Positions 1 to 41,185 are shown, counted from the first letter of the stretch. The stretch: DNA of 64,000 bases from Escherichia coli (GCF_041886205.1 NZ_CP169029.1); one strand, 5' to 3'. Notes: generated by a model from the sequence alone, not told the origin. Program-made: numbers and translations.

Positions 1-651
1 GCTCAAGATATCGGTAAACTGCATTCATCGAGGAAAGTCTCGCCAGATTGGTATTCCAAGTTACCAATCCCTTGGAACAAAACTGTTACTTGGATCGATA
101 GTTCGAGCCCTAATGAAGCAGGTGCAGAAGAACATAAGGGTAATGGTCGTTACTATAATCAACGAGAAGTCCGGCTACTGCTAGAGGCTTTGCAGTCATT
201 GTCGAGTGATGGCTGCATTGCACAGCTTGAGCAAACTATTACCACAGAACAGCCATATCCTATTGGTATAATCACAATGTATCGTCAGCAAAAAGAGGAA
301 ATTGACAATGCTATCAGTCGGGCTGAATGGGCTGCATCGTTACGTGGTTTGATCAAGATCGATACCGTTGATTCATATCAGGGCCATGAAAACAAGATAA
401 TTATCCTCAGTCTGGTTCGCGATAATCCCAACAAACTACAAGGTTTCCTGCGCGACGCGCCGCGAATAAACGTTGCTATTTCGCGAGCTCAAGAAAGGTT
501 ATTGATTCTGGGAGCAAGGCGTATGTGGTCAAAGACCAATAATGATTCAGCACTTGGAAACGTTCATGAATTTATTAGTAAACAGGTTGCAGTAGATGAA
601 CCCAACTACCAAATCCTGTGTGGTCAAAGTCTGCTTGGAGATAACAACTAA
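1..651 (+). CDS. SF1 (Upf1/DNA2-like) helicase, C-terminal part only; 5' end lies upstream of the window
   Basis: Frame 1 is open from position 1 to the stop at 649-651. Translation carries helicase C-terminal motifs (DTVDSYQGHE, INVAISRAQERLLILG) resembling the C-terminal helicase core. Confidence 0.6.
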   Translation, partial: AQDIGKLHSSRKVSPDWYSKLPIPWNKTVTWIDSSSPNEAGAEEHKGNGRYYNQREVRLLLEALQSLSSDGCIAQLEQTITTEQPYPIGIITMYRQQKEEIDNAISRAEWAASLRGLIKIDTVDSYQGHENKIIILSLVRDNPNKLQGFLRDAPRINVAISRAQERLLILGARRMWSKTNNDSALGNVHEFISKQVAVDEPNYQILCGQSLLGDNN

Positions 652-2198
652 TGTCAGAACCACGTCTGGGTAATCTGATTACCGTTTTACTACCTGCGCG
701 TAGTTACAAGATCAACTGCGCTTTGACCACTGAAAAACTGATGCCTGGAATTGAACAGTTTGCATGTCGCTTGCTGCTGATTTTTGATCAACTCTATCCC
801 AGCGAGTTACAGAATTACTTTGGTCTAACTGATCGTGAGCGAGAGGTATTGCTTGATGGGTTGCTGGCTAACAGACTGATCAACATTAATCCTGATGGGC
901 ATATTGAGGCTAGCTCATTCCTACGTAAGCATGCAGCTAATAATGGTGGGAAGCCAAGTTTAGTTAAATATCAAGAATGTACGGAGGAAGTTGCATTCGA
1001 TCTACTAACTCTTTCGATATGTAAACCGCAACCAAATCGTCGTTTTACTTCTGGACTGCCAGAGCTATTGCCGCGGCATCAGATCGGGGGAGATGCTGCT
1101 GCGGTAACAGAGGCTTTTAGTTCCCAGTTTAGGCACCATCTTTTGCTCAGCCGCAACAGCGAGTATGAGCGTCAACGGACTAAATTATATAAGATAATGG
1201 GCTGTAGTTCGCATGAGATGGTGCAGCTCCCAATAGAGATAGAGGTTAGCTACGGTGTTTCTGCTGGGAGCATTGAGCCGCAGAAATTTACTCGTTCCTA
1301 TGAATATTTAGGTAACACCCGGCTGCCGCTTTCAAACGAGCTGGAAGCTCATATCGCAGATTTTTTGGGAGAACATAAACTAGATGAATTCGGTATCGAC
1401 TGTGAAGATTTCTGTAAACTAGCAAATGATAAAGTGTTGTTACAATTTGCTAATGGTTATAAGTTCAACTATTCCGGCTGGATAGAGGCTCGTGAACAAC
1501 GTAAAACTGGCTACGGTACTTCATTGACTACCGGCATGTTAGGGGCTGTTTATTTGCCGCACAATTCTAAGCTGTTCATTAGTATGTTGCATAATGCATT
1601 ACGTGATTATATAGGTAAAACAGCTCCAAAAGCGCTGTGGTATAGCAGTAAAGTACCACTGTGGGGAGCTAATGGTAGTCAACTTTCGCGTTTTACTCGC
1701 GCTCTAGGCGATATACTTGGCAATTATGCCGATGATAAGATTGCTCGCATTTCGCTTTTACACTCAAGTGCAGATGAAGGTGAAAAACGTCAAGAGCGTA
1801 AGCGGCACTTAGGTCGTTTTCCTACCGGTATTGGCCTTACTTCAGAGGCTAAATTTGATCGTTTGGAGATCCTCTTAATTCCTGATGTGATTGCTTTGGT
1901 GCAATACCACGGTCAACCTAATTCTGATAGTGCATTAACCCTGCCGATTGGTTATATAACTGTTGAGCCAGAGCGTTTAGAATTACTTAAAAAACTAATG
2001 ATTAAGCGAACTGAAGGGGCTGTTGCAACCATTACTTGGTCTGAATCAAAATTTGAAAATTTAGCTTCGCTATTACCTGTTGAGTTTCTGATTAAACTGA
2101 ATAAGAAAAGCGGTGAAGATGTGGATGCTGCAATAAAAAAAATGCAGATCTATAACCGTGCTGAAACCGCACGGGCAATTTTATCGCTACGCAAGTAG
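651..2198 (+). CDS. Hypothetical 515-aa protein, translationally coupled to the upstream helicase
   Basis: ATG at 651 overlaps the helicase stop (TAATG); GGAG 13 nt upstream. Long uninterrupted ORF with no catalytic motif I can recognise. Confidence 0.6.
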   Translation: MSEPRLGNLITVLLPARSYKINCALTTEKLMPGIEQFACRLLLIFDQLYPSELQNYFGLTDREREVLLDGLLANRLININPDGHIEASSFLRKHAANNGGKPSLVKYQECTEEVAFDLLTLSICKPQPNRRFTSGLPELLPRHQIGGDAAAVTEAFSSQFRHHLLLSRNSEYERQRTKLYKIMGCSSHEMVQLPIEIEVSYGVSAGSIEPQKFTRSYEYLGNTRLPLSNELEAHIADFLGEHKLDEFGIDCEDFCKLANDKVLLQFANGYKFNYSGWIEAREQRKTGYGTSLTTGMLGAVYLPHNSKLFISMLHNALRDYIGKTAPKALWYSSKVPLWGANGSQLSRFTRALGDILGNYADDKIARISLLHSSADEGEKRQERKRHLGRFPTGIGLTSEAKFDRLEILLIPDVIALVQYHGQPNSDSALTLPIGYITVEPERLELLKKLMIKRTEGAVATITWSESKFENLASLLPVEFLIKLNKKSGEDVDAAIKKMQIYNRAETARAILSLRK

Positions 2199-2412
2199 CA
2201 TTTATATTGCAACGAATAAATTTTTCTAGGTTGCTATGAACTAGCTAAAGGGCAACAAATAGATAAACGGCGTTATTCATGTCAAATGAGATAATGTTAA
2301 ATTGATAGGGATTTATACCCCGCCGGCCATTTTGAATGGTCGGAGTTGTTATAAACGTTAAACCGCCCCGGAAATCCTGGAGACTAAACTCCCTGAGAAA
2401 GAGGTAAACAGG

Positions 2413-2739
2413 ATGACTAAAAATACACGTTTTTCCCCCGAAGTCCGTCAACGGGCAGTTCGTATGGTTCTGGAAAGTCAGGGCGAATATGACTCACAAT
2501 GGACAGCAATTTGTTCTATTGCCCCTAAGATTGGCTGTACACCGGAGACTCTGCACGTCTGGGTACTCCAGCATGAGCAGGATATTGGGGGCGGTGATGG
2601 TGGTTTCACCACCACTGAACGTCAGCGTCTGAAAGAGCTGGAACGTGAAAATCGTGAACTGAGCCGCAGTAACGATATCCTTCGCCAGGCTTCCACTTAT
2701 TTTGCGAAGGCGGAGTTCGACCGCCCCTGGAAAAAATAA
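2413..2739 (+). CDS. IS3-family transposase OrfA (IS629 OrfA-like, 108 aa)
   Basis: Translation MTKNTRFSPEVRQRAVRMVLESQGEYDSQW...LKELERENRELSRSNDILRQAS matches IS629/IS1203 OrfA as I recall it. Confidence 0.75.
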   Translation: MTKNTRFSPEVRQRAVRMVLESQGEYDSQWTAICSIAPKIGCTPETLHVWVLQHEQDIGGGDGGFTTTERQRLKELERENRELSRSNDILRQASTYFAKAEFDRPWKK

Positions 2740-3118
2740 TGCCACTGCTGGATAAGTCGCGTGAGCAGTACGGGATCGGACCGGTATGCAGTGAACTGCA
2801 TATTGCCCCGTCAACGTATTACCACTGTCAGCAACAGCGACATCATCCTGATAAACGCAATGCCCGTGCGCAGCGTGATGACTGGCTGAAGAAAAAGATA
2901 CCGTGCGTATACGATGTGCGTAAAGTCTGGCGTCAGTTGTTTCGGGAAGGTATCAGAGTGGCCAGATGCACTGTGGCACGTCTCATGGCGGTTATGGGGC
3001 TTGTCGGTGTTCTCTGGGGTAAAAGGTCCGCACTACCGTCAGCCGGAAAGCCGTTGCCGTAGACGACCGCGTAAACCGCCAGTTCGGGGCAAAGTCGTGG
3101 GTGGCTGATTTTACTTAC
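2739..3118 (+). pseudogene. IS3-family transposase OrfB, truncated and frameshifted
   Basis: Begins MPLLDKSREQYGIGPVCSELHIAPSTYYHCQQQRHHPDK like IS629 OrfB, but is short of a few residues versus the recalled sequence, stops after 107 aa, and continues in another frame (RQFGAKSWVADFTY) before homology ends. Confidence 0.6.
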
Positions 3119-3690
3119 GGTGTGCCCGGAGTTCAGGGTGAGCACGGATGCTGAAATGAACCATGAGTCTGTCTGGAATATGGAACAGATAACTCATGAC
3201 GAGAAGCCCAACAATCCCACCGGGTGTGACTGTGGTGAACCTGAGCGACTGTGACCTGCGGCATTCCCTAAGGATGATGTAACCCGCTGACAACGGGGAT
3301 TGAGGCGAGATCACTAAGCCGAGATGATCCTCAAGGTTGAGTGCTGAAAGGCTGAAGAACATGAACCCGTTAATCCGCCTCTGTGGGCTGAAAACGTCAC
3401 CACGGCCTACATGATCTGACAGGTCGTGCAGAAGTAACTGTCTGCGACACGTATGCGCGGGTCAGTCAAAGGTGTTCTGACATGTATGCAAAACACCGGG
3501 ACAGCAACGCCTATCACGCTCACGTTGCTGACTTCTGTCAACTTGCGGCAAGCAAGGACAAAGAGTGCGACGGGCAGCCTCCTCAGTATGTATGAGTTCA
3601 GACAGGTGAACTGGGGAAGGTCAGCGACGGATGTTAAGGAGGCAGTAAGCGTCAACGGAGCACCGTATTGACGCTTATTTATTGGTGAGA
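3119..3690 (+). mobile_element. Candidate group II intron 5' fragment (domain I-like structured RNA) inserted in the IS OrfB remnant; no intron-encoded protein ORF
   Basis: Starts GTGTGCCCGGAG...GGGTGAGCACGG immediately after the IS OrfB FTY codons, resembling the GUGYG...GGGUG start of bacterial group II introns. GC-rich, non-coding in all frames. Group II introns are known to target IS elements in E. coli. Confidence 0.25.
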
Positions 3691-3698
3691 ACTACGTT

Positions 3699-3900
3699 TC
3701 ATGGCAGGAGTTCGTCAACACGGTTGGATAGTAATGCACGGCTCAGTTCGACACCCTGTCGGGCAAAGATTTCACTCTGACGATACAGTGGCAGGTGTTC
3801 GCAGTATTTTCCCGTTAACACGCGGGCAAGTAATCCGGGGCCGCGATACCACGCTCTATCGGGCAGGACGGCGCCAATGATAGCATTTATACAAGCAATT
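3699..3900 (-). pseudogene. IS66-family transposase (TnpC) internal fragment
   Basis: Minus-strand translation ...GLLARVLTGKYCEHLPLYRQSEIFARQGVELSR... matches the conserved HLPLYRQSxIxARQGV block of IS66 TnpC, then hits a stop. Far too short for an intact gene. Confidence 0.45.
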
Positions 3901-4227
3901 CTGGGAGCTTATAGATTGTGTGCAAAACTTTTGATAGCAGGAGGTTACAACAGTATTGATGAAAAAGATCATTCAAATCGATTTATATATTTTGTTAATG
4001 TTATCTGTTTTCAATCTAATAACCACGAATATAGCTAATTATAGGATGATTACTAGTTTTGCTACCCTATCAACCAAACGTTCACCGGACATTAGAAAAC
4101 ATGGAAATTTCTTGTTTTTAAATGCTTTTTACACCAATAGAAAAATTTACATTCCAAAATCATTAGTCTTTGCGTAATCAAAAGATGTAATGGTTTTTTT
4201 CCTTACTACTTCTAGATAATCCGCCCA

Positions 4228-4345
4228 CTACAGCAACATCAACTTACGCTCATCTAAATGCTCCGCCTTATGGATATAAGCTACCCGCACTGAATTACAT
4301 TCCATGCGGCTCATCAGACGTCCAGTTGCTTTACTGTCTTCAGGG
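4228..4345 (-). pseudogene. P4-type integrase 3'-terminal fragment (remnant of an older island)
   Basis: Minus-strand translation ...ATGRLMSRMECNSVRVAYIHKAEHLDERKLMLL* aligns with the C-terminus of the intact integrase at 11064..12326 (...AVERQMSHQERNGVRAAYIHKAEHLEERRLMLQ...). No upstream catalytic region. Confidence 0.5.
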
Positions 4346-4584
4346 GGATGCTCTTGTAATCCCAACCTCTCGTGCTTTCTGAGCATAACACATCCATGTT
4401 GCTGCGATTATCTCTTAAACCCGTCCTTACCATTTTTATTGATACGATAAGGAACCTTCATCATACATGATCGATTTTGTCGATCGATTCGATCGAATTT
4501 TCTCTTTTTACCCTGTCTTTTACATGGTTTTAAAATAAGCACCCCATTTATTGTTCGGGGAAAGTGATAGCAGAGGTAACTGAA

Positions 4585-5313
4585 ATGAAAAAGATTATTG
4601 CGGTTTCAGCACTTGCTGTGGCAGGCATGTTTTCAGCCCAGACCCTGGCTGATGAGAGCAAAACAGGCTTTTATATGACCGGTAAGGCGGGAACTTCCGT
4701 TTTATCTCTTTCCAACCAGCGTTTTGTCGAAGGTGAAGGAGAGTGGGCGGACAGATACAAAGGTGACGATGACCATGATACGGTATTCAGTGGCGGTATT
4801 GCGGCCGGTTATGATTTTTATCCGCAGTTCAGTATTCCGGTTCGTACAGAACTGGAGTTTTACGCTCGTGGAAATGCTGACACGAAATATAATCTTTATA
4901 AAGACGACTGGTCGCGTGGTGACCTGAAGAACGAGGTGTCAGTCAACACTCTGATGCTGAATGCGTACTATGACTTCCGGAATGACAGCTCATTCACACC
5001 ATGGGTATCTGCAGGGATTGGCTACGCCAGAATTCACCAGAAAACAACCGGTATCAGTACCTGGGATTACGGGTATGGATACAGTGGTCGTGAATCGTTG
5101 TCACGTTCAGGCTCTGCTGACAACTTCGCATGGAGCCTTGGCGCGGGTGTCCGCTATGACGTCACCCCGGATATCGCTCTGGACCTCAGCTATCGCTATC
5201 TTGATGCGGGTGACAGCAGTGTGAGTTACAAGGGCGAGTGGGGCGATAAATATAAATCAGAGGTTGATGTTAAAAGTCATGACATCCTGCTTGGTGTGAC
5301 TTATAACTTCTGA
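4585..5313 (+). CDS. Outer-membrane beta-barrel protein (OmpA-like/opacity-type family), 242 aa
   Basis: Signal peptide MKKIIAVSALAVAGMFSAQTLA, alternating aromatic/hydrophilic beta-strand pattern, C-terminal ...LLGVTYNF ending in Phe. The ORF-track start at 4564 is probably an upstream extension. Confidence 0.7.
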   Translation: MKKIIAVSALAVAGMFSAQTLADESKTGFYMTGKAGTSVLSLSNQRFVEGEGEWADRYKGDDDHDTVFSGGIAAGYDFYPQFSIPVRTELEFYARGNADTKYNLYKDDWSRGDLKNEVSVNTLMLNAYYDFRNDSSFTPWVSAGIGYARIHQKTTGISTWDYGYGYSGRESLSRSGSADNFAWSLGAGVRYDVTPDIALDLSYRYLDAGDSSVSYKGEWGDKYKSEVDVKSHDILLGVTYNF

Positions 5314-5390
5314 CGACACTGCTTCTGAATGATAATTGCGCATATTTCTGCAATTAAGATAATTACGTATTTCTGTAATTAAAAAGGAAC

Positions 5391-5435
5391 ACCCTGCAGT
5401 AATATTATACTGCAGGGTTGTCTGTTATCTGCTTT
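5391..5435 (+). terminator. Putative rho-independent terminator after the outer-membrane protein gene
   Basis: Perfect 11-bp inverted repeat accctgcagta/tactgcagggt followed by a T-rich tract. Confidence 0.4.
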
Positions 5436-5488
5436 ACAGGATATTTCTGATTTTTATTATCTTATTCTCTTTATATTAAGATATTTCG

Positions 5489-6988
5489 ATGAGTATCATA
5501 AAACTATTTTTTCCGGACAATACATCCCGAATTTTATTGTTTTTATTCTTTTTTGTTGTTTCTGTCATAACCACAATTGCATGCGGATACACTGAGAAGA
5601 ATACCACCGGGAATGTGTTGCTGCTGTTCTTTCTTCTGCTTCTTGCACACAGAAATACCCTCACATCCATTACAGCGCTGTTATTTCTGTTCTGTTGTGC
5701 ACTGTATGCGCCTGCCGGTATGACGTACGGTAAAATCAACAACAGTTTTATTGTCGCGTTGTTGCAGACCACGGCTGATGAGGCAGCGGAGTTTACCGGG
5801 ATGATTCCTGTTTATCATTTTCTGGTCAGTGCCGCGATTCTGGTATTCATGGTGATTTTCTGGCGAACACACCACCGCGGTCACCGTAACTGGCTGGCAC
5901 TGCTGCTATTCGTATTATGCTCTGTAAACAGCTGGCCGTTGCGGATGGTTAAAGGAACCGTTGTGGGGACAACTGACACATTGCGTGAAATGCAGCGTTA
6001 TAAACAACTGAGTCAGCACGGGGCTGACAGCTGGAAAATCCTGCCGGGTGTACCGTTGTATGACACGATTGTTATTGTTACTGGTGAGAGTGTGCGCAGG
6101 GATTATATGTCGGTATATGGCTATCCCGTGCCAACCACACCGTGGCTGAATACTGCTCCCGGTTTATTTATTGACGGCTATACATCGGCAGCAGCCAGTA
6201 CCGTACCTTCCCTGAGCCGGACACTGATTTATGACTATGAGCAGAACCCTGATTCCGGCAACAACGTGGTGGCGCTGGCAGCAAAATCAGGATACAGCAC
6301 ATGGTGGATATCCAATCAGGGAAAACTGGGAGAGCATGACACACGCATCTCTGTTATTGCTTCTGATGCGGAGCATACCGTTTTCCTCAAGAAAGGCAGC
6401 TTCGCTTCCCGTAAAACGGATGATATGTTGTTGTTACAGGAAACAGAACGTGCGCTGGCGGATACATCCTCTCCGAAGGTGATTTTCCTGCACATGATTG
6501 GCTCTCATCCGAATCCGTGTGACCGACTTAACTCCTGGCCGAATCATTACCTGGAGCAGTATCCCCGAAAGATTGCCTGTTACCTCGCCAGCATCAGTAA
6601 ACTGGATAACTTTCTCGGTCAGCTTGATGGTATCCTTCGCCGGCATTCCCGTCATTTCGCCATGCTTTACTTTTCTGACCATGGACTGTCGGTCAGCGAC
6701 AGCGCTAATCCTGTTCATCATGATGGTCATGTGCAGGGAGGCTACAGCGTTCCCCTGATTATTACCGCCAGTGACATCACGTCTCATCAGTCCGTCAGCA
6801 GAAAAATCAGTGCCCGTCATTTCGCAGGTATTTTTCAGTGGCTGACCGGCATTCGTACTGAAAATATACCGCCATTCAATCCGCTGACAGACGAAGATAA
6901 TGAACCCGTTATGGTTTTTAACGGGGAGAGGAATGTACCGGCAGACAGTCTGAAACCGCAGCCTCTGATTCTTCCGGACAGAAGATAA
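5489..6988 (+). CDS. Sulfatase-family phosphoethanolamine transferase-like inner-membrane protein (EptA/YhbX-like), 499 aa
   Basis: N-terminal multi-span hydrophobic region followed by a soluble domain with sulfatase-like signatures (IVTGESVRRDY, HMIGSHPNPCDRL). Exact start codon uncertain. Confidence 0.65.
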   Translation: MSIIKLFFPDNTSRILLFLFFFVVSVITTIACGYTEKNTTGNVLLLFFLLLLAHRNTLTSITALLFLFCCALYAPAGMTYGKINNSFIVALLQTTADEAAEFTGMIPVYHFLVSAAILVFMVIFWRTHHRGHRNWLALLLFVLCSVNSWPLRMVKGTVVGTTDTLREMQRYKQLSQHGADSWKILPGVPLYDTIVIVTGESVRRDYMSVYGYPVPTTPWLNTAPGLFIDGYTSAAASTVPSLSRTLIYDYEQNPDSGNNVVALAAKSGYSTWWISNQGKLGEHDTRISVIASDAEHTVFLKKGSFASRKTDDMLLLQETERALADTSSPKVIFLHMIGSHPNPCDRLNSWPNHYLEQYPRKIACYLASISKLDNFLGQLDGILRRHSRHFAMLYFSDHGLSVSDSANPVHHDGHVQGGYSVPLIITASDITSHQSVSRKISARHFAGIFQWLTGIRTENIPPFNPLTDEDNEPVMVFNGERNVPADSLKPQPLILPDRR

Positions 6989-7096
6989 TCATGTCGGTAT
7001 GAATGTTATAATTAAGGACCGTGCAATAATAGCCATTCCATTCAGCCATCTTACGCTCGAAAACAATCGATAAGATGGCTACTCACCATTCCTGCT

Positions 7097-10000
7097 CTAA
7101 ACCTGACGCCTCTCAAGACTATTATAAATAGCCTCAATCTCACCCTTCAGGTTATCACCGCAATAAACCATTGAGGTATCGTATCGTTCATATCGCGCTT
7201 CCCGTGTCGCACTAAACCAGTTGAACGATCCCACGCACAGCAAACCATCATCACCAATAACAATTTTGCTATGAACACGGTTTACCAGCTTTGTAGCAAT
7301 ACCCAGCGCATTCAGTTTCTCCAGCGCCGCTTTAAAGTTTTGCTGCTTCTCTTTTCGCTTCTCAAAATCATTATGTTCAGTGTTGTAGCTTCTGTCAGTG
7401 ACTATCGTGACGTTAATTCCACGTGAACACGCCGCAATCATGGAATCAAGAAAACCTGTTTGCTCCAGCCTTTGCCAGGTCAGCCATGGAGAAACTATCG
7501 TGATGTGTTTACTGGTATTTTCAAATGTCTGATTCAGGAAATTATCATGTTGCTCCACACCATGAAGTGTGTAGATTTTGGTCCCGGAGGTTTTTAAATC
7601 CTTACGCTCTTTATAATCAAAAGAGAGCGCATTCTTCTCTGACTCAAAGAGGTATTTTGCCAGTAATCCCCGTGGAGATGAGGCTGGCTGGACCTCAAAC
7701 AGGTCCATATCGCCGAAGACCAGAAAACTGTCCTTCGCACGGGAGACTGCAACATTCAGCATGCTGTTATCGCTATCAATAAACCCGCCGTCTTCATGTT
7801 TTGAATAGACTGGCGAGAATATCACAATCGCTCTTTCCGCTCCCTGAAGAGAGTGCACGGTGCCCACTGTGAGCGACTTTTCATTCGAGCCTGTACTGAT
7901 ACCTTGTTTGCCCAGCGCCTGTTTGATAGTGGATACCTGAGCGCTAAAAGGCGTCACGATACCGACAACTTCATGAAGCGATTTACCGTAATGCGCTTCA
8001 ATATTTTGTTGGTTCTCTGCCAACCAGACCGCTATCGTTTCAGCCTCAAGCAAATTATATCGACTTCCACTACTTGCCAGCTCTCCTTTACCATCAATAT
8101 GGAGATACCCCATTGCGGGCATTAAATTGCTCTCTTCACGCCCTCTTTTAGGCAACAACTTACCGTGATAGCAGAGCGTATTACAGTATCCAATAATATT
8201 GTCGTAGCACCGGCGGTGTTCATATAGGGACATACCACGAGCCAGTTCGGGATCATATTGATAGCGCGAAGCAAACTGCGCTATTTTCATAACGCTGCCA
8301 GATGCGGCACTTTTACCAAGGTCTGCGATTGCCGTATATTTCTCGGTAATCTCTTCTTGCGTACTGCCAGACAGAATTTTTTCCGCCAGCATGTTACCGA
8401 CATCAATCGCAGGAGCAATACTCCATATTGGCGGGAGCTGCTCCGTATCGCCAATCACTAATGCCTTCTTAGCTAATGCAAACGAGGCAGCAGCCACTTC
8501 AGGAAGCACCTGCCCGGCTTCATCGACAATGAGTAAATCGGCAAAATCATACAAATAACTTTTCTCGAATTTACGCTGTCCTTTGTGCTCACTTATCTGC
8601 ATATTGCCGGGCAGCATATAGCATGTCATCACCACACATGGAGTGAGTTTCATTCGACGTTGCCAACGGGCAGTTACCCCTTTAGCGCCTTTTTTCTTCT
8701 TCTCTTCCTGCAGATCATCAATGCTGGCCATATCCATCAGCCAACGACCTTCCCAGTAGTGAGTCGTCAGTAAAAATGCAGGGAAGCGAATCTGCGTATC
8801 AGCCAGTTCATCGGCCTGTGAGAAGCTCAGTTCCTCGTCGCCCTCATACCCTAAATTAAGAGCCAGTCTCTGCCACTCCTGAACCGCCTGCTGTTCTTTA
8901 AGAATGATTTCATGGGCGGAATCAATCTGCTGCCGGTATGTTGTTTGCTCGCGCTCAGCGGAATTGAGCAGCCCATCAATATTACGTTCGATAGTTTCAG
9001 GATCAGACCACTGATTTCCTGCAATCAGCGCACCTAATTTATCTTCGAGAAACAGCTGTATTTGGTACTGTCGCTTACTGCGAACCACCGGGAGCCAGGA
9101 AAATAATGAATAGATCAGTGATTCACCGGCGCGATATTTTTTCCATTCCGTTTTAGCACTTTTCAGTAGAGTGATTTTTTGTTCTTGTCCGGAAAGTAAT
9201 TTATTTAAATTATCGAGATATTGCTCAATGTCGTTAGCAATAAGCTCACGCGCAGCCCGTACCTGGCTTAACGTTTGCCATGTTGCGTTCAGTCTTATCA
9301 GTTGCTCGGATTTTGCTGCCAACTGACCATGCAGGAGTTCAATGACCTTTTCAGGGGATGAACAATCTTTTTCAGGAAAGGCTGCCTTAGCCTTCTCCAG
9401 ATAAAACAGCAGTGCATCCTCTACATACTCTTTTGACTCAACCTGGTTGAAGAAATCTTCAGTTTGATATTTTTTGGCTGCCTCAGCTTTACGAGTGCTT
9501 GAGGGAAAATAAGCGCCGAAGCTTTTCAGCTCAGGTAACCATCGTCCGGCCATTGCACCAGTGCCCTGTGAAAAATCTTTCCCGAACGCTTCGATAATGT
9601 TCGTTACAGCCTGGTTGTTCGTTGAAGTCGCGATAATTACCGGAGGCTCAGATTTTTCGAGAGCCGCTCTGGCCCACTGCGTGGCGATGATAGAAAGCAC
9701 CAGCGTGGTTTTTCCGGTTCCCGGAGGTCCATTAACAGCAAGGATATCGCCATGTCTTGCATCCAGAAAATGGCTTAAGGCATCGCGCTGAGCCTTTGCC
9801 AGCGGAAACTTATCTCCGGAGTGTCCAAGCCTGTCGCTGAATTTTGCGCCTGGGGCCAGCAAAGACTCTGCAGCATGAACCTCTCGCGAGGCGAAGCGAT
9901 TGAAGAGCGGCACAACCTTCTTGCAAACAAGCAGGTGATCATAAAGAGAAAGGATATGGAAACAGGCACCGCCAGATTGCGCCGTTTTAACAATATAACC

Positions 10001-10612
10001 GTGCTCAGCGAGTTCATATTGCTCAGGATTTTTAATCCAGTCGCCGGCAACGTTCTTCAGCAGCCTCTCTGAATCATCCAGATATTGACGCCACTCCTGC
10101 TGCAAGGCTGCATATCGTGCTTCCCGTTCTTCATCCGTTTCGGCAGTCTTATCAATGCCGTCATCAAAGTTGATAGAGAACGAGGTATGGATTGTCTTGT
10201 ATTTGTCATACTGCCCAATCTCACCAATCGAAAATGCTCCTTTTGGCAAAGGTTCAAGCAGGTCTCTGGGAATGGAGGTCGCTGGCGTCGGATATAAAAA
10301 ACCCTCACGGCTTAGCAAGGCTGGCGTCACTATCGGGGTAACAATATCAGGCGCGCCTGCGGAACGGTCCTTACCATGCTGCAGTAACCGGAAATAAACT
10401 TTTGGGCGCAAGATGACATCGACCGTTTCGACATCGTCTTTTTCTCCCTTAAAAAATTTACTGACAATCGCTTCGTCAAGACGTCCCGCCGCTATCCCAT
10501 GCCAGTGAGTGAAATTTTTGGCGTCTTTCCGTTCAAAACTGCCCTTTCCTGACTCAGCATCCGCAAGCGAGTTGCGCCAGTATGAGGTAAACCCTAAAGC
10601 ATTTTCATCCAT
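7097..10612 (-). CDS. SF1 helicase (Upf1/DNA2-like) fused to a C-terminal PLD-family (HKD) nuclease domain, 1171 aa; candidate single-gene antiphage defense protein
   Basis: Walker [15 protein letters not shown]; Walker B/motif [11 protein letters not shown]; [11 protein letters not shown]; C-terminal helicase motifs [14 protein letters not shown] and [16 protein letters not shown]; C-terminal [19 protein letters not shown] is an exact HxK(x)4D(x)6GSxN phospholipase-D motif. ATG at 10612..10610 with AGGA upstream. Confidence 0.75.
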
Positions 10613-10665
10613 TACCAGTCCTGTGACTCAATGAAATCCATTGATTTATCGAATATAAAACCACC

Positions 10666-10688
10666 ATATGGACAACTATTGTCCATAT
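10666..10688. promoter_or_regulatory. Perfect 10-bp inverted repeat (atatggacaa-cta-ttgtccatat) 54-76 bp upstream of the helicase-PLD start; candidate operator
   Basis: Palindrome read directly from the sequence, located in the upstream region of the minus-strand gene starting at 10612. Confidence 0.3.
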
Positions 10689-11009
10689 TGAAAAAATTGG
10701 ATGCAATGTTTTGTTTATAATTCGATATCAAATGTACTGGTTGTACAAGGTTCAGAACACAAGCACATTCAACAGTACGTCAGGACTATTGATTTCATAA
10801 CAGTGAATACATTTTTTACCGTTTATAATGACTGCCTGTGTTGGACAAGGATACCAGAACAGCCGAAAACACCGGGGGTTATTACCTGCTCTCATGGAAA
10901 CCAGATATTCCTGGTGCTAATCACAGTCATAAATAGCCTGAAGAACATGACGAAGGGACTTTAATGGACGCCGGAGTAACTTGCCAGAACATCAATCTTC
11001 GTCATCATT

Positions 11010-11060
11010 TACAAAGAAAAATAATCAGTTAAAGCAGTCCGGGCTGATTGCCCGGACTGC
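11010..11060 (-). terminator. Putative rho-independent terminator downstream of the integrase
   Basis: Perfect inverted repeat gcagtccggg/cccggactgc immediately after the integrase stop, followed on the minus strand by a T-rich tract. Confidence 0.45.
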
Positions 11061-11063
11061 TTA

Positions 11064-12326
11064 CTATTTTAATGGATTGTTAATTTTTGCATATTCAAAC
11101 GGACTGATACCCTTCTCCCGGTTCGCATCCAGAAAATCGGCCCACCATTGCAACATCAGTCGCCGTTCTTCCAGATGTTCTGCTTTATGGATATACGCAG
11201 CACGTACACCATTACGCTCCTGATGGCTCATCTGACGTTCCACAGCATCGCGGGACCACAAACCTGATTCAATCAATGCACTGCACGCCATCGCCCGGAA
11301 TCCATGGCCACAGACATCCTGGGTTGTGTCATACCCCATCACCCTCAGGGCTTTATTTACAGTATTTTCACTGATTGGTTTACGCGGGTCATGTGCTCCC
11401 GTAAAGATCAGACCATTTTCACCAGCCCATGTCTGTAGTTCTGCCAGTATGGCTACAGCCTGTTTGCTGAGTGGCACAAGATGTGGTGTTCGCATCTTGG
11501 AGCCCCGGTGTGAGAATTTTACGCCAGGCAGAGGTTCGCGTTCGGCTGGAATAGTCCACATGGCATTGTCAATATCAATTTCAGACCAGCGGGCGTATCT
11601 GAGTTCACTGGAACGAATAAAAACCAGTAAATTCAGCATAACTGCCAGTCGGGTGACAGGCTGGCCTTTATAACCGTCAATACGCGACAGAAGTTCAGGC
11701 AGGCGTGAAAGATCCAGTGCAGGGCGATGCTGGCGTTTTACCGTGGTCAATGCACCAGCCATATCCAGAGCCGGGTTATATCTGATGATGCCAGACTGTA
11801 CGGCATAACGCATTACAGCAGATATTCTTTGCTGCAGACGACTGGCGATTTCATAAATTTGTTTAGCTTCTGCAGCACGAACAGGGATAAGCAGGTCCGG
11901 GGTACTGAGTGTTGTGATATCCCGGTTGCCGATAAAGGGGAAAACGTGTGTCTCGAGGCTTTTGAGTACTTTATCGCTGTGTGATTGTGCCCATTGTTTA
12001 TTACTGGCATGCCAGCGTCGTGCAATATGTTCAAAAGAGAGTTGTAAATCAGGGACTACTTTTTTAGCTCTTTTCAGTTCGCAAGGGTCAATCCCCTCCG
12101 AAATCAGTTTTCGGGCCTCATCCCGTTTTGTACGAGCTTCGGAGAGAGAAACTTCTGGATACACACCAAGTGCCAGAGTCTTCTCCTTACCCAGAATACG
12201 ATAACGGAGACGCCAGTAACGGGAACCATTAGGATGAACCAGTAGGAACATGCCAGCCCCGTCAGTGAGTTTATAAGCCTTGTCAGTGGGCTTTGCAGCC
12301 CGGATTTTTGCGTCAGTCAGTGCCAT
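11064..12326 (-). CDS. P4-type phage integrase (tyrosine recombinase), island integrase next to tRNA-Phe
   Basis: Translation from the internal Met: MALTDAKIRAAKPTDKAYKLTDGAGMFLLVHPNGSRYWRLRYR... (typical P4-family N-terminus); C-terminal catalytic region with HGFRAMA...YIHKAEHLEERR. The ORF-track start at 12389 is an upstream extension. Confidence 0.85.
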   Translation of the reverse strand: MALTDAKIRAAKPTDKAYKLTDGAGMFLLVHPNGSRYWRLRYRILGKEKTLALGVYPEVSLSEARTKRDEARKLISEGIDPCELKRAKKVVPDLQLSFEHIARRWHASNKQWAQSHSDKVLKSLETHVFPFIGNRDITTLSTPDLLIPVRAAEAKQIYEIASRLQQRISAVMRYAVQSGIIRYNPALDMAGALTTVKRQHRPALDLSRLPELLSRIDGYKGQPVTRLAVMLNLLVFIRSSELRYARWSEIDIDNAMWTIPAEREPLPGVKFSHRGSKMRTPHLVPLSKQAVAILAELQTWAGENGLIFTGAHDPRKPISENTVNKALRVMGYDTTQDVCGHGFRAMACSALIESGLWSRDAVERQMSHQERNGVRAAYIHKAEHLEERRLMLQWWADFLDANREKGISPFEYAKINNPLK

Positions 12327-12486
12327 AGTATAGCCTTCTGAATGCGTTAAAGAGGGTACAAATTCTGTCGAACTGGGGTATGCCCGCAATTATACCCACA
12401 CAATGGGGTTGATGTGGGGGGAATCTGGTTGAGTTCGGTAGAATTGATTTGTAGGTAGAACGCTTAAATTGTGGCGTTCTGAAACG

Positions 12487-12513
12487 AAAAACGGACCTCC
12501 GTGGAGGTCCGTT
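12487..12513 (-). terminator. Rho-independent terminator of tRNA-Phe
   Basis: Hairpin acggacctcc/ggaggtccgt directly 3' of the tRNA on the minus strand, followed by a TTTTTCGTTT run. Confidence 0.5.
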
Positions 12514-12523
12514 GATATGAATT

Positions 12524-12599
12524 TGGTGCCCGGACTCGGAATCGAACCAAGGACACGGGGATTTTCAATCCCCTGCTCTACCGACTGAGCTATCCGGGC
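12524..12599 (-). tRNA. pheV: tRNA-Phe (pheV locus by synteny with yqgA-speC)
   Basis: Reverse complement reads GCCCGGATAGCTCAGTCGGTAGAGCAGGGGATTGAAAATCCCCGTGTCCTTGGTTCGATTCCGAGTCCGGGCACCA, the E. coli tRNA-Phe sequence including CCA. Confidence 0.95.
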
Positions 12600-12704
12600 A
12601 ACGGGGCGCATTAAACCTGATTCGCCTCGTCTCGTCAATCAAATTTCTTCAATTTACTGCAGACTGCACAATCTATCATCACTTTGCCGCTATTGCACGC
12701 ATTG

Positions 12705-13412
12705 TCAGGCAAACCAGGCGGTCCAGGCGGCGGAAATCGGCATTGCCAGAAGGAGTGCTGGAAGCATGTTGACCACCGGGAACATTTTAATGCCACAGAT
12801 GCGTAATCCGGTTGCCAGCAGCAATAAACCGCCTACGGCGCTGAAGTCTGCCATCATCGACGGTGTGGTCAGCGGTAATATCAGCGCGGCAGCCCACGCC
12901 AGCGTTAACTGGATGATCAGTAATGGTATACTAATTACCGACACCGCGATGCCCAACGAGCAGGCGAAGATCATTGCCGTAAAGAAATCAAGAAATGACT
13001 TGGCGATTAAAATACTCGGATCGCCGGTCATCCCTTCGTTCATCGCCCCGAAGATCCCGGTGCCGCTGGCGCAAAACAGGACAATAATCGCGACATAATT
13101 CTGAATAAAAGATTCATGCGCTGGCTTCTTACGTGAGTGACGAAACAGATTTTGTGCTTTGGTGACCGCGGTATTGACGCCTTTTTCCAGCAGACAAAAT
13201 TCGCCGATTAATGCTCCAAGTAAGGTTGCTAAAACCATCGCCGGAAGGTTGGCGCATTTCACCACCAGTAAAATACCAATCCCCAGCGATGCCAGACCAA
13301 AAATTGATGTCATGGAGACGCGGATACGTTCCGGTAAGCGTTGGCTAAGTAGTGCACCGAGCACGCCACCCAGTAATACTGCACTTGCGTTGATAAAAGG
13401 ACCGATGACCAC
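12705..13412 (-). CDS. yqgA: Inner membrane protein YqgA (DUF554)
   Basis: Translation [30 protein letters not shown]... matches YqgA. GTG start chosen to give 235 aa; the ORF-track ATG at 13433 is an alternative. Confidence 0.8.
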
Positions 13413-13810
13413 AAAAGTTCCCGTTAGCTGCATTGTCTGATTTTCTTATTATGACCGTTTGGTGCCGTCGATGGCTTGTTTGTTCGCAAAGTCCTGGCTT
13501 GCACGCTCTGATGAAAGGTGCCATGATTGCGCGAATTTTCTCCTCTCTGTACGGAGTTTGCCCGATGCATGCCACCTCCTTACATTCTCTCGCTTATCGC
13601 CGTTTCGCGCGAAACTCTTCTCTTTTTATGCTACTGCTCATGCGGTGAAGTTAACGCACGCTCACTGCAGGACAACAGTAAAATCAGAGCGTTTCTGCTT
13701 TTACTGATGTCTGGCGGTCGGAGCTGGTGACCAGTTTGACCCATATCTCATGGGGCAGGGTTTTCCACCTTGTCCGGTATTCTTACTTCCCCGAAACGGG
13801 TTTTGCGCTT

Positions 13811-15946
13811 ATGAAATCAATGAATATTGCCGCCAGTAGTGAACTGGTATCCCGACTTTCTTCACATCGCCGCGTGGTGGCGTTGGGAGATACTGATTTT
13901 ACGGACGTCGCGGCAGTCGTCATTACCGCTGCGGATAGTCGCAGTGGCATTCTTACGTTGCTTAAGCGCACCGGTTTTCATCTACCGGTGTTTTTGTATT
14001 CCGAACATGCTGTTGAATTACCTGCGGGCGTTACGGCGGTAATCAATGGCAACGAGCAGCAGTGGCTGGAGCTGGAATCCGCAGCCTGTCAGTATGAAGA
14101 GAATTTACTGCCACCGTTTTATGACACGCTGACGCAGTACGTTGAGATGGGCAACAGCACCTTTGCTTGCCCTGGACATCAACATGGTGCGTTTTTTAAA
14201 AAGCATCCTGCCGGACGCCATTTTTACGATTTCTTTGGTGAGAACGTCTTTCGCGCCGATATGTGTAACGCTGACGTAAAATTGGGCGATCTGCTTATTC
14301 ATGAAGGATCGGCGAAAGATGCGCAGAAATTCGCAGCCAAAGTCTTTCATGCCGATAAAACCTATTTTGTGCTGAACGGCACATCGGCAGCGAATAAAGT
14401 GGTGACGAATGCGCTGTTAACGCGTGGCGATCTGGTGCTCTTCGACCGTAACAACCATAAGTCGAATCATCACGGCGCGCTGATTCAGGCGGGGGCGACG
14501 CCGGTCTATCTGGAAGCTTCACGCAACCCGTTTGGTTTCATTGGCGGTATTGATGCGCACTGTTTTAATGAAGAGTATCTGCGCCAGCAAATTCGCGACG
14601 TTGCGCCAGAAAAAGCTGAGTTGCCGCGCCCGTTTCGCCTGGCGATTATTCAGCTGGGAACCTATGACGGCACTGTCTATAACGCCCGTCAGGTGATCGA
14701 TACCGTTGGGCATCTGTGTGATTACATTCTGTTTGATTCCGCGTGGGTCGGTTATGAACAATTTATCCCGATGATGGCGGATAGCTCGCCGCTGCTGTTA
14801 GAACTTAACGAAAACGATCCGGGGATCTTTGTGACTCAGTCGGTGCACAAACAGCAGGCGGGATTCTCACAGACGTCGCAGATCCATAAAAAAGATAACC
14901 ATATCCGCGGACAGGCGCGTTTTTGCCCGCATAAGCGGTTGAATAACGCCTTTATGCTCCATGCTTCTACCAGCCCTTTCTATCCGCTGTTTGCTGCACT
15001 GGATGTTAACGCTAAAATTCATGAAGGAGAGAGTGGGCGTCGGCTGTGGGCTGAGTGCGTTGAGTTGGGTATTGAGTCGCGCAAGGCTATTCTTGCGCGC
15101 TGTAAGCTGTTCCGCCCGTTTATCCCGCCCGTTGTTGATGGCAAATTGTGGCAGGATTATCCGACATCTGTGTTAGCCAGCGACCGCCGTTTTTTCAGTT
15201 TTGAGCCGGGGGCGAAGTGGCACGGCTTTGAAGGATATGCCGCGGATCAGTATTTTGTTGATCCGTGCAAGCTGTTACTCACTACACCAGGTATCAATGC
15301 CGAAACTGGCGAATATAGCGACTTTGGCGTTCCGGCGACGATTCTGGCGCACTATCTGCGTGAGAACGGCATTGTGCCGGAGAAGTGCGATCTCAACTCC
15401 ATTCTGTTCTTATTAACTCCGGCGGAAAGCCACGAGAAGCTGGCACAACTGGTAGCGATGTTGGCGCAGTTTGAACAGCATATTGAGGATGACTCGCCGC
15501 TGGCTGAGGTGTTGCCGAGCGTTTATAACAAGTATCCGGTGCGCTATCGCGACTACACCCTGCGCCAGTTGTGTCAGGAGATGCACGATCTGTATGTCAG
15601 TTTCGACGTCAAAGACCTACAAAAAGCGATGTTCCGCCAGCAGAGTTTCCCGTCAGTGGTGATGAACCCCCAGGATGCGCATAGCGCTTATATTCGCGGT
15701 GACGTGGAGTTGGTGCGGATTCGTGATGCCGAAGGGCGAATTGCGGCAGAAGGGGCGTTGCCTTATCCACCTGGCGTGCTTTGCGTGGTACCCGGGGAAG
15801 TCTGGGGTGGGGCGGTTCAACGTTATTTCCTTGCACTGGAAGAAGGGGTGAATTTGTTGCCGGGATTTTCGCCGGAGCTGCAAGGTGTTTATAGCGAAAC
15901 CGATGCGGATGGCGTGAAGCGGTTGTACGGTTATGTGTTGAAGTAA
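13811..15946 (+). CDS. speC: Ornithine decarboxylase, constitutive
   Basis: MKSMNIAASSELVSRLSSHRRVVALGDTDF..., 711 aa, matches SpeC. Track ORF has an in-frame N-terminal extension. Confidence 0.93.
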   Translation: MKSMNIAASSELVSRLSSHRRVVALGDTDFTDVAAVVITAADSRSGILTLLKRTGFHLPVFLYSEHAVELPAGVTAVINGNEQQWLELESAACQYEENLLPPFYDTLTQYVEMGNSTFACPGHQHGAFFKKHPAGRHFYDFFGENVFRADMCNADVKLGDLLIHEGSAKDAQKFAAKVFHADKTYFVLNGTSAANKVVTNALLTRGDLVLFDRNNHKSNHHGALIQAGATPVYLEASRNPFGFIGGIDAHCFNEEYLRQQIRDVAPEKAELPRPFRLAIIQLGTYDGTVYNARQVIDTVGHLCDYILFDSAWVGYEQFIPMMADSSPLLLELNENDPGIFVTQSVHKQQAGFSQTSQIHKKDNHIRGQARFCPHKRLNNAFMLHASTSPFYPLFAALDVNAKIHEGESGRRLWAECVELGIESRKAILARCKLFRPFIPPVVDGKLWQDYPTSVLASDRRFFSFEPGAKWHGFEGYAADQYFVDPCKLLLTTPGINAETGEYSDFGVPATILAHYLRENGIVPEKCDLNSILFLLTPAESHEKLAQLVAMLAQFEQHIEDDSPLAEVLPSVYNKYPVRYRDYTLRQLCQEMHDLYVSFDVKDLQKAMFRQQSFPSVVMNPQDAHSAYIRGDVELVRIRDAEGRIAAEGALPYPPGVLCVVPGEVWGGAVQRYFLALEEGVNLLPGFSPELQGVYSETDADGVKRLYGYVLK

Positions 15947-15950
15947 GAAT

Positions 15951-15990
15951 AAAAAAAACGGGTCACCTTCTGGCGACCCGTTTTTCTTTG
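15951..15990. terminator. Bidirectional rho-independent terminator between convergent speC and nupG
   Basis: A-run, hairpin cgggtcacc/ggcgacccg, T-run. Confidence 0.6.
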
Positions 15991-15995
15991 CGTAA

Positions 15996-17252: not shown

Positions 17253-17453
17253 GTTAATTTCCTCACATCGTGATGCGGATGAGTGTTTGAAAAAGCACAT
17301 TTGACCGTGCGAGATGATGGGATTCTATCAACTTCGCGGACTGGTTTTTTGTTACCTGTGGCAAATAATTGCAAACATTCCCAATTTGCAAAACGAAATT
17401 GTGATGTGGATAACATTTTTGCCCCTGAGCATCGTCAGGGGCGGTTAATGGAA

Positions 17454-18560
<1,107 letters not shown>

Positions 18561-18597
18561 TTATGCAAGTTGCCGGAGGCGTGCTCCGGCACTGTTT

Positions 18598-18876
<279 letters not shown>

Positions 18877-18900
18877 TCATCCTCTTTATCGACTCACGCG

Positions 18901-19953: not shown

Positions 19954-20113
19954 GGTCACCGAATTCACTGTTGTTGGGGGCAAGATTGCAGCACAGCGAC
20001 GGCAGGGTGTAAACCGGAACTTTCCGCAGCCACGGCCTTATCATGCTTGCATCCGGCAACTAACTTTGGATAATGCCCGTTTTCAGAACACTTTCACAAG
20101 CGACTAAACCTTT

Positions 20114-24424: not shown

Positions 24425-24648
24425 GATTTGTAGCAGGATGCGGCGTTGACCCCGCATCCGGCAATCAACGTCTGATGCGACGCTTGCGCGTCTTATCAGA
24501 CCTACAACCGCTGCCACATGTCGGCTGAGGCGCTCACGCCGCATCCGACAATCAACGTCTGATGCGATGCTTGCGCGTCTTATCAGACCTACAAACGTTG
24601 CCACATGTAGGCTGGATAAGGCGTTCACGCCGCATCCGGCAATACAAG
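24425..24648. repeat. BIME cluster: tandem REP elements between yggM and hemW
   Basis: Three copies of gccgcatccggcaa / gtctgatgcga(c/t)gcttgcgcgtcttatcagacctacaa palindromic units. Confidence 0.75.
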
Positions 24649-39122: not shown

Positions 39123-39139
39123 TTAAGATTATTCCGCTG

Positions 39140-39180
39140 GCGGGTCGATTTATTTACGTAAATCGGCCCGCTTTCTTTTT
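39140..39180 (+). terminator. Rho-independent terminator after speA
   Basis: Hairpin gcgggtcgattta/taaatcggcccgc followed by TTTCTTTTT. Confidence 0.55.
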
Positions 39181-39267
39181 ATATATTCTTAAAAATAATC
39201 TCGCTGCTTTTCTTATTAAATAATCTCCCTACAATCGCTGCATTAATTAAATGCAGAGGGAACGGTT

Positions 39268-39999
39268 ATGAAAAAATGGAAAGTACGTAGCGCGTTGGTG
39301 GCATTAATCGTGCTGCTGGCCGGTTGTTCCAGTAATGCGCAGTATAATAGCAGTGCATCGGGCAATGTCGGCACTGCCTGGGGTGGGGATGTGCACTCAA
39401 CGGTTCAGGGCGTATCTGCTGAGCGAGCCTGGCGCGATCCGGCAGAGATGATCGTTATTAGTTATTCGACTAATGTTCCTTCCGGCTACGACCGCGTTTA
39501 TAGCATTCGTATTAACGAACTGGAATATGCTATTCGCGATGGTAATTTTAATTCTCTACCTATTACGCGGATTTATGATTCATCCAATAATGAACCACGC
39601 TATATTGTCCATGCCAGAGTCGGAATGAATTATCAATTATATGTCCGTAATTACAGTCGTAACACCAACTACGAGATCGTTGCTACGGTTGATGGCATGG
39701 ATGTGCTGAACGGCAAGCAAGGTTCGCTGAATAACAACGGCTATATTGTGAATGCCGGAGATTCGTTAGCGATTAAAGGATTCCGCAAAGATAAACATAC
39801 CGAAGCGGCTTTTCAGTTCGCCAACGTTGCTGATTCCTACGCAGCCAATTCGGCGCAAGGCGATGTGCGTAATACCGGTGTAATCGGCTTTGCCGCCTTT
39901 GAATTACAAGGCCCGGCGCAAAACGCGCTGCCGCCGTGCTCTGGACAAGCCTTTCCGGCAGATAACAATGGCTATGCGCCGCCACCGTGTCGGAAATAG
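39268..39999 (+). CDS. Hypothetical lipoprotein (243 aa), accessory gene inserted between speA and speB
   Basis: Signal peptide with lipobox MKKWKVRSALVALIVLLAGC|SS; RBS GAGGGAACGGTTATG. As I recall, K-12 has no gene between speA and speB. Confidence 0.65.
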   Translation: MKKWKVRSALVALIVLLAGCSSNAQYNSSASGNVGTAWGGDVHSTVQGVSAERAWRDPAEMIVISYSTNVPSGYDRVYSIRINELEYAIRDGNFNSLPITRIYDSSNNEPRYIVHARVGMNYQLYVRNYSRNTNYEIVATVDGMDVLNGKQGSLNNNGYIVNAGDSLAIKGFRKDKHTEAAFQFANVADSYAANSAQGDVRNTGVIGFAAFELQGPAQNALPPCSGQAFPADNNGYAPPPCRK

Positions 40000-40134
40000 C
40001 AACCTCGCTTGATGCCTCGCCCATTTAAGGCGATAATTAGCACAAACTTGTGTTTCGCAAATCCAACCCTTCCTCGTCGGGCCTAACGACGCGGAAGGGT
40101 TTTTTTATATCGACTTTGTAATAGGAGTCCATCC

Positions 40135-41062: not shown

Positions 41063-41185
41063 ATGCGATGCCACCCGTAGGCCGGATAAGATGCAGTCAG
41101 CATCGCATCCGGCAATGCGCACAGGGTAACAAATGTGCCATTGATGTCAGATGCGGCGTGAACGCCTTATCTGACCTACGTTCGA
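41063..41185. repeat. REP elements
   Basis: gccggataagatgcag...gcatccggcaatg and gatgcggcgtgaacgccttatctgacctac palindromic units. Confidence 0.7.

Follow-up and report, generated by a model that had tools for sequence, protein, structure and literature searches.

The phenylalanine tRNA gene pheV is the best-known island hotspot of Escherichia coli. The islands of the GI-pheV family, together with their integrase gene intP4, their modular make-up, and their 23-bp attachment site attR, have been described by Nhu et al. (2024, PMC11537424); in that family, intP4 is the only conserved gene, the modules are parted by insertion sequences (ISs), and two different integrase groups contain a tia gene and a "putative DNA helicase", respectively. 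"Integrase-only" defence islands at E. coli tRNA hotspots were reported by Hochhauser et al. (2023, PMC10121019), and the Mokosh systems by Millman et al. (2022, bioRxiv 10.1101/2022.05.11.491447). Here, we examined a stretch of 64,000 nucleotides from an E. coli genome (GCF_041886205.1, NZ_CP169029.1), referred to below as the window, in which positions 1..12523 adjoin a tRNA-Phe gene. We conclude with high confidence that this segment belongs to a large mosaic island of the GI-pheV/GI-pheU family, of which it forms the head next to the tRNA gene. The island is of an already known kind, the family having been published and its cargo systems described, and the finding is an ordinary one; all five complete proteins occur letter-for-letter in public databases.

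The locus resembles the published GI-pheV islands (PMC11537424) in lying directly 3' of pheV, in having a P4-type integrase as its first gene, in a 23-bp core formed by the end of the tRNA gene, in modules parted by ISs, and in also occurring at pheU. Every GI-pheV/intP4 feature that can be examined in the window is found there, and the attR is found in the near-identical copy in the bovine strain ZYB39. The difference lies in the cargo: the head described here bears Mokosh type II and type I systems and envelope genes, not the pap/sat/iha/aerobactin, locus of enterocyte effacement (LEE), or efa1 modules. The helicase cargo in PMC11537424 appears there without the name Mokosh, and pheV and Mokosh were not joined in any paper of the literature searched, which is an annotation gap and no discovery. 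The locus is also similar to the integrase-only islands (PMC10121019), in that a lone phage-type integrase stands by a tRNA gene with defence genes right behind it, without other mobility genes and in a subset of strains. Unlike those islands, it is the head of a larger virulence-type mosaic (92 kb in ZYB39, with F17, Ag43, contact-dependent inhibition, and yee loci) and no compact islet.

The position of the island is clear from the alignments. ARAGORN identified one tRNA gene in the window, a tRNA-Phe(GAA) at 12524..12599 on the minus strand, and Rfam agreed. The gene is intact; 76 of its 76 nucleotides match K-12 pheV, and it is also identical to pheU of strain ZYB39. The flank on its right (12400–20000; yqgA-speC-nupG-mltC-yggX-mutY) is present with a coverage of at least 80% in 5401 of the 5426 complete E. 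coli genomes over which the distribution counts were made, and because the yqgA-speC flank is near-universal in E. coli, the tRNA-Phe gene of the window is pheV. Collinearity with K-12 extends from 12524 to 64000, the sole sizeable difference being a 0.9-kb insertion between speA and speB, and the homology with K-12 ends exactly at 12524, the 3' end of the tRNA gene. On the other side of pheV, K-12 carries yghD-yghE, without an integrase. The initial annotation, which had proposed an island integrated at this tRNA 3' end and had described the genes to its left as absent from the K-12 arrangement, is thus upheld by the alignment: K-12 homology stops at the tRNA. The site attL is a 23-bp att core consisting of the last 23 nucleotides of the tRNA gene (12524..12546; TTCGATTCCGAGTCCGGGCACCA in the tRNA sense), as delimited by alignments with K-12 and with a public contig, L019, and its sequence is that given in Table 1 of PMC11537424. 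Right after the tRNA gene is a GC-rich, terminator-like hairpin with a T-run (12490..12513, minus strand), which is island DNA and takes the place of the unrelated terminator hairpin after K-12 pheV (L003 10443..10490). The hairpin of 12490..12513 was also found after the attR of ZYB39 (L021 ~12320..12345).

The intact integrase that the initial annotation had noted beside the tRNA 3' end, reading like the tRNA gene away from the yqgA-speC core, was also confirmed. The gene intP4 (11064..12326, minus strand) encodes a P4-type tyrosine integrase of 420 amino acids counted from the ATG (PRK09692, E = 9e-74), with the domains Arm-DNA-bind_3, Phage_int_M, and Phage_integrase. The open reading frame (ORF) is intact, both the HxxR motif and the motif with the tyrosine (AYIHKAEH) are present, and over 97% of its length the protein shares 55% identity with phage P4 Int. 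Just past the int stop codon lies a palindromic hairpin with a 13-bp stem (11032..11062), which forms part of the left end of the conserved integrase head (11011..11063).

Copies of the island in other strains were compared with the window. The sequence of ZYB39 differs from positions 1..12617 by three substitutions and one IS100 insertion. Its island is situated at pheU, with dicD-dsbD-cutA as neighbours, and the match to the window is lost from position 12618 on, 19 nucleotides upstream of the tRNA gene. Among the public contigs encoding the exact integrase protein, the pheU context was found in ZYB39 and in five others (L011, L013, L015, L016, and L020), and the pheV context in three (L012, L017, and L018). 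Compared with all of these public copies, at either pheV or pheU, the island part shows 0–3 nucleotide differences in up to 11.5 kb. The core flank of pheV shows 82–117 differences in 9.7 kb (~1%), and in the pheV copies the first flank mismatch occurs 90–140 nucleotides past the tRNA gene. The divergence of the island is thus lower than that of the surrounding chromosome by a factor of at least 30, with the switch at the tRNA gene; from this difference, we infer that the island spread recently. Contig L019 (GCA_012358895.1, AASDVN010000051.1; 9537..10001) contains a tandem in which a yee-module island ending in ParDE is followed by the integrase head of the window. The junction between them is an imperfect 23-bp repeat, TTTCATTCCGAGTCCGGGCACCA, and the homology to the window ends at 12546, where the 23-bp core also ends. 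The head consisting of mkoC (the Mokosh type II gene) and int is located beside pheV in 210 complete genomes and beside pheU in 365, so that pheU is the commoner site; the count of 365 comes from a rebalanced query, the 560 of an earlier query having been dropped, as pheV copies reach 80.7% coverage of it.

The simplest reading of these data is recent horizontal spread by integrase recombination at the 23-bp core of two identical tRNA genes. In such a process, the P4-type integrase would recombine the attP of the element with the 23-bp core in the 3' end of the tRNA-Phe gene, and integration would rebuild an intact tRNA gene and bring a new terminator, leaving the integrase and then the cargo behind the tRNA. 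As pheV and pheU have the same sequence, the island is found at either gene in different strains. The cargo next to the integrase is an 8.2-kb module (mkoC, a transferase gene, and a gene for a Tia/Hek-like protein) common to hundreds of strains, and beyond an integrase remnant and IS debris follows a rarer Mokosh type I module (mkoA-mkoB), with the remaining island and its attR past the left edge of the window.

A search of the window for attR with four patterns, allowing up to three mismatches and covering the 23-bp and 1-nucleotide-deleted forms (17-mer), found the tRNA gene itself only, and a general repeat search of the window found the integrase remnant and chance-level short repeats, and nothing else. 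The far boundary therefore lies outside the window, as had been supposed at the outset. In ZYB39, the attR is TTCGATTCCGAGTCCGG-CACCA, 22 bp long with a 1-nucleotide deletion, and is located ~92 kb from the tRNA gene, beside cadC; it is of the 23-bp type listed for many GI-pheV islands. It was located by reading the sequence beside cadC, because the 1-nucleotide deletion causes an ungapped search to miss it. Between this attR and cadC, there is a decayed integrase head, made up of the same hairpin and what is left of a frameshifted integrase gene (L021 12288..12665), which suggests an older, eroded island at pheU. Distal to the part shared with the window, the island of ZYB39 carries a locus of the cyclic oligonucleotide-based anti-phage signalling system (CBASS) type, a reverse-transcriptase gene, orphan CdiA-CT/CdiI modules, F17 fimbriae, Ag43, and a yee (CP4-44-like) module. 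The CBASS oligonucleotide cyclase comes with WYL, nucleosidase, and exonuclease genes, and the reverse-transcriptase-domain gene with a small partner; these two loci of ZYB39 and the CdiA-CT/CdiI modules (L001 4850..10994; L007 3625..4916 and 5363..7098) are further defence or competition genes. Draft contigs with the same pheV arrangement as the window (e.g., L012) break soon after mkoA.

The alternative that survives best is that the island came to pheV without its integrase, by homologous recombination, and that the copy is now a fixed, non-excisable remnant. This could have taken place by an exchange of resident pheU and pheV islands, through the tRNA/int head together with IS or yee modules, or by replacement once a large piece of chromosome had been transferred. 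Long homology for such an exchange is provided by the intP4 heads, which occur frequently at pheV (2940 genomes) and at pheU (1302) with at least 95% identity, and the island is rich in ISs and integrase remnants. However, near-identity changes to ~1% divergence within ~100–150 nucleotides of the tRNA gene in three independent pheV backgrounds, the pheU copies switch 19 nucleotides upstream of it, and L019 joins the same head to unrelated DNA exactly at the 23-bp core. A fixed state would be consistent with the published GI-pheV islands, approximately a third of which (34%) are without an attR and are thought to be fixed or stabilised (PMC11537424), and with the lack of an attR within the window, but the integrase gene is unbroken and its catalytic motifs are present, and ZYB39 retains a near-perfect attR. 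We consider this explanation unlikely; in individual strains, islands resident at pheU and pheV may have been exchanged by homologous recombination.

Several points weigh against a complete, integrase-driven island that confers defence. Besides the proportion of published islands without an attR, the window itself includes neither an attR nor the distal core flank, and MkoA falls only partly within it. No excisionase, conjugation, replication, or packaging gene was seen in the 12.5 kb. The MkoB-type partner is without the canonical phospholipase D (PLD) HxK motif, and defence by these particular alleles is a prediction, as are the activity of the integrase and the present-day mobility of the island. 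Even so, recent horizontal spread through the integrase at the tRNA-Phe core accounts most simply for the exact boundary and for the near-identical copies at two loci.

Everything to the left of the pheV tRNA gene in the window is accessory DNA, as had initially been proposed. At least 80% of positions 1..12600 was found in one place in only 1 of the 5426 genomes, that of ZYB39. The junction int-pheV-yqgA was found in 2940 genomes (54%), with 95–99% nucleotide identity in the integrase gene, and the junction int-pheU-dicD in 1302 (24%). The gene mkoC occurred in 839–888 genomes (~16%), always on the chromosome, and mkoA-mkoB in 69–71 (1.3%). In terms of composition, the GC content is 46.0% at positions 1..12523 and 51.4% in the rest of the window, where the lowest value for a 12.5-kb core window is 49.8%. 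Codon adaptation, relative to the core genes of the window, is 2.1–3.2 standard deviations under the mean for int, mkoC, the transferase gene, mkoA, and mkoB, and 1 standard deviation under the core genes for the outer-membrane protein gene. Both measures set the segment apart from the core, in agreement with the initial annotation, which had suggested this comparison. Furthermore, the core flank of wlxctx60 is 100% identical to that of the window and is joined to the same integrase type at pheV, with other cargo behind it (IS1, a decarboxylase, and antiporters); the similarity between the two begins at 11011, 53 nucleotides beyond the int stop codon. It is accordingly very improbable that the region is ancestral E. 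coli DNA deleted in K-12 and similar strains, despite the integrase at pheV in more than half of the complete genomes, since the cargo behind the integrase varies between strains even where the core flanks are identical, GC content and codon usage deviate from the core, the same DNA is found at a second locus, pheU, divergence is at least 30-fold lower in the island than in its flank, and the boundary is the att core of a site-specific integrase.

Phage P4, a satellite, integrates at leuX. Like the island, it has an integrase of this family (55% identity) and follows the principle of integration at a tRNA 3' end, and it differs in its replication, capsid-size, and transactivation genes, which were not seen here. 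The integrase similarity might suggest a P4-like satellite, other prophage, or integrative conjugative element (ICE); P4-like satellites bear defence genes at E. coli tRNA hotspots (PMC10121019), and both pheV and pheU serve as sites for ICEs as well (PMC11537424). However, all ORFs of at least 100 amino acids in 1..12523 were assigned to Mokosh, the transferase, the outer-membrane protein, IS fragments, or the integrase, with two further ORFs of this size (2494..2814 and 6434..6820, minus strand) overlapping annotated genes on the opposite strand. No alpha primase/helicase, psu/sid/delta, capsid, relaxase, or type IV secretion gene was present among the ORFs of 1..12523, and none of these genes is annotated in the 92-kb island of ZYB39, which leaves hardly any room for such an element.

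The island is modular. The 8.2 kb at ~4387..12600 (int, mkoC, transferase, and outer-membrane protein genes) occurs as a single piece at 95–98% identity in many genomes. To the left of this module, strain SCU-102 carries a type I restriction-modification system, AAA-ATPase genes, and CdiA; MB31 carries ISs together with omptin, YadA-like, and DUF262 genes; and the window carries IS debris and Mokosh type I. Dnd/Dpt is a further alternative to the left of the integrase remnant or the outer-membrane protein gene. This remnant (4147..4329, minus strand) preserves the terminal ~60 codons of another P4-type integrase gene, with an internal stop, and has 70% nucleotide identity to 11128..11238. It is kept at the module junction in several of the compared strains and marks the junction of the conserved 8.2-kb head and the variable distal cargo. 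On its distal side, there is an IS66-family transposase fragment (3714..3874, minus strand), followed by more non-coding debris common to strain 222 (3063..3644) and by a truncated and frameshifted IS3-family transposase gene (2413..3062, plus strand) with an ALIL frameshift pseudoknot (2694..2810, Rfam). An Rfam search of 1..13500 at gathering thresholds detected nothing beyond the tRNA and this IS3 ALIL pseudoknot.

Between mkoC and the integrase head is a spacer of ~400 nucleotides (10613..11010) that contains an ORF of 87 amino acids (10701..10964, plus strand), which is a gene call, without annotation, in some public contigs (L011 and L018). In SCU-102, the spacer differs by ~49 nucleotides in length. 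An mkoC "cassette" defined by a transferase remnant common to wlxctx60 and the window was considered and rejected, as there is no nucleotide similarity to the left of 11011.

The genes named in the initial annotation, a helicase-PLD gene, a transferase-like gene, an outer-membrane protein gene, IS debris, and a helicase gene with a partner, were all identified. The first and the last of these matched the models of MkoC and of MkoA and MkoB, respectively, and therefore represent Mokosh type II and type I. The gene mkoC (7097..10612, minus strand) encodes a protein of 1171 amino acids that matches the PADLOC model PDLC03924 over its full length (1684 bits), with residues 1–1169 aligned to positions 1–1135 of the 1136 positions of the model. 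Pfam searches showed a superfamily 1 (SF1), Upf1-like helicase (AAA_11/AAA_12) and a C-terminal PLD nuclease domain (PLDc_2), and in the translation the Walker motifs and the sequence HSKIVIGD (HxKxxxxD) are intact. MkoC thus agrees with the published Mokosh type II, which combines an Upf1-like SF1 helicase with a C-terminal PLD domain, in its architecture and in its intact ATP-binding and HxK motifs. Homologues of MkoC defend against phages (Millman et al. 2022, bioRxiv 10.1101/2022.05.11.491447).

The Mokosh type I genes are located at the left edge of the window, which cuts mkoA so that only its 3' end of 216 codons is present (1..651, plus strand), as established from the full-length copy of ZYB39 and PDLC03921. 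In this near-identical copy, MkoA has 1652 amino acids, scores 1304 bits against the MkoA model PDLC03921, and contains kinase-like N-terminal regions (PglW and MAD6 models) and an Upf1-like helicase. The stop codon of mkoA overlaps the start of mkoB at 651. The mkoB-type gene (651..2198, plus strand) encodes a partner protein of 515 amino acids that matches the PADLOC model PDLC03923 (1e-61); no Pfam, NCBIfam, or PDB-sequence match was found for it. The order of an MkoA with kinase-like regions and a helicase, followed by a partner gene, is that of the published Mokosh type I (Millman et al. 2022), and the PADLOC models were matched over their full length (for MkoA, in the ZYB39 copy). The partner differs from that description in having no recognisable PLD sequence motif and in belonging to the PLD superfamily only in its predicted fold. 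Its AlphaFold model (predicted local distance difference test, pLDDT, 84.7) comprises a MarR-like winged helix and a PLD-superfamily domain and matches the PLD-superfamily structures NucT, Nuc, F13, TrmBL2, and FAM83. In the family motif QYHGQPNxDS, His420 is invariant and position +2 is occupied by Gln, Arg, His, or Pro, and never by Lys, and an hhalign comparison of the MkoB family profile with the PLD domain of MkoC gave no significant match. For these two reasons, the label "PLD nuclease" appears to hold for this MkoB subtype at the level of the fold, as modelled, with the catalytic chemistry not assured, and the partner may be a non-canonical or non-catalytic PLD-like protein. Together, the two helicase/PLD systems would give the host anti-phage defence, if these alleles act as their sequences predict.

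The 8.2-kb module also contains two envelope genes. One of them (5489..6988, plus strand) encodes a phosphoethanolamine transferase of the sulfatase family with 499 amino acids, distantly similar to EptC/CptA. The protein falls under every NCBIfam equivalog cut-off, including those of EptA and all MCR models: no MCR model gives it more than 35 bits, where the cut-offs are ~1250, which places it outside the MCR type, and its best NCBIfam match overall, the CptA subfamily, reaches 105 bits against a cut-off of 404. The other gene (4585..5313, plus strand) encodes an outer-membrane beta-barrel protein of 242 amino acids, of the eight-stranded type and the Tia/Hek (Hra) group (OMP_b-brl), close relatives of which are named Hek or Tia in some sources. 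This gene is uninterrupted in the window, whereas in ZYB39 it is split by IS100 (IS21 family; L001 22064..24018), with a 6-bp target duplication equivalent to 5059..5064 of the window. The transferase and this adhesin-like protein would probably alter the cell surface.

On the core side of the window, the 0.9-kb segment between speA and speB (39123..40057), where K-12 has ~60 bp, shows a dip in GC content to 46% and contains an ORF on the plus strand (39268..39999) for a protein of 243 amino acids with a lipoprotein-type signal (LLAGCSS). At 24529..24555 and 41072..41074, K-12 is longer by ~118 and 60 bases, respectively, differences that may correspond to REP-type intergenic elements.

A bolder extension of horizontal spread through the integrase is that the island, or its head, is a still active "integrase-only" element that hops between strains and between the two Phe-tRNA genes, and that MkoB is a non-canonical effector of the PLD fold in which the lysine has been replaced. 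We put this forward tentatively, as a proposal that has some chance of holding but more of failing. If it is true, a helper, either a conjugative element or a transducing phage, would move a defence-loaded island of up to 92 kb.

For the annotation of E. coli genomes, these results mean that two genes listed in RefSeq as "AAA domain-containing protein", together with a neighbouring "hypothetical protein", make up the Mokosh type II and type I systems. They also mean that many pheV and pheU islands begin with ~8 kb that form a defence/envelope module and not a virulence module. Finally, the near-identical copies at two loci and in several backgrounds provide a clean natural case of recent island spread, on which the movement of integrase-only islands could be studied.

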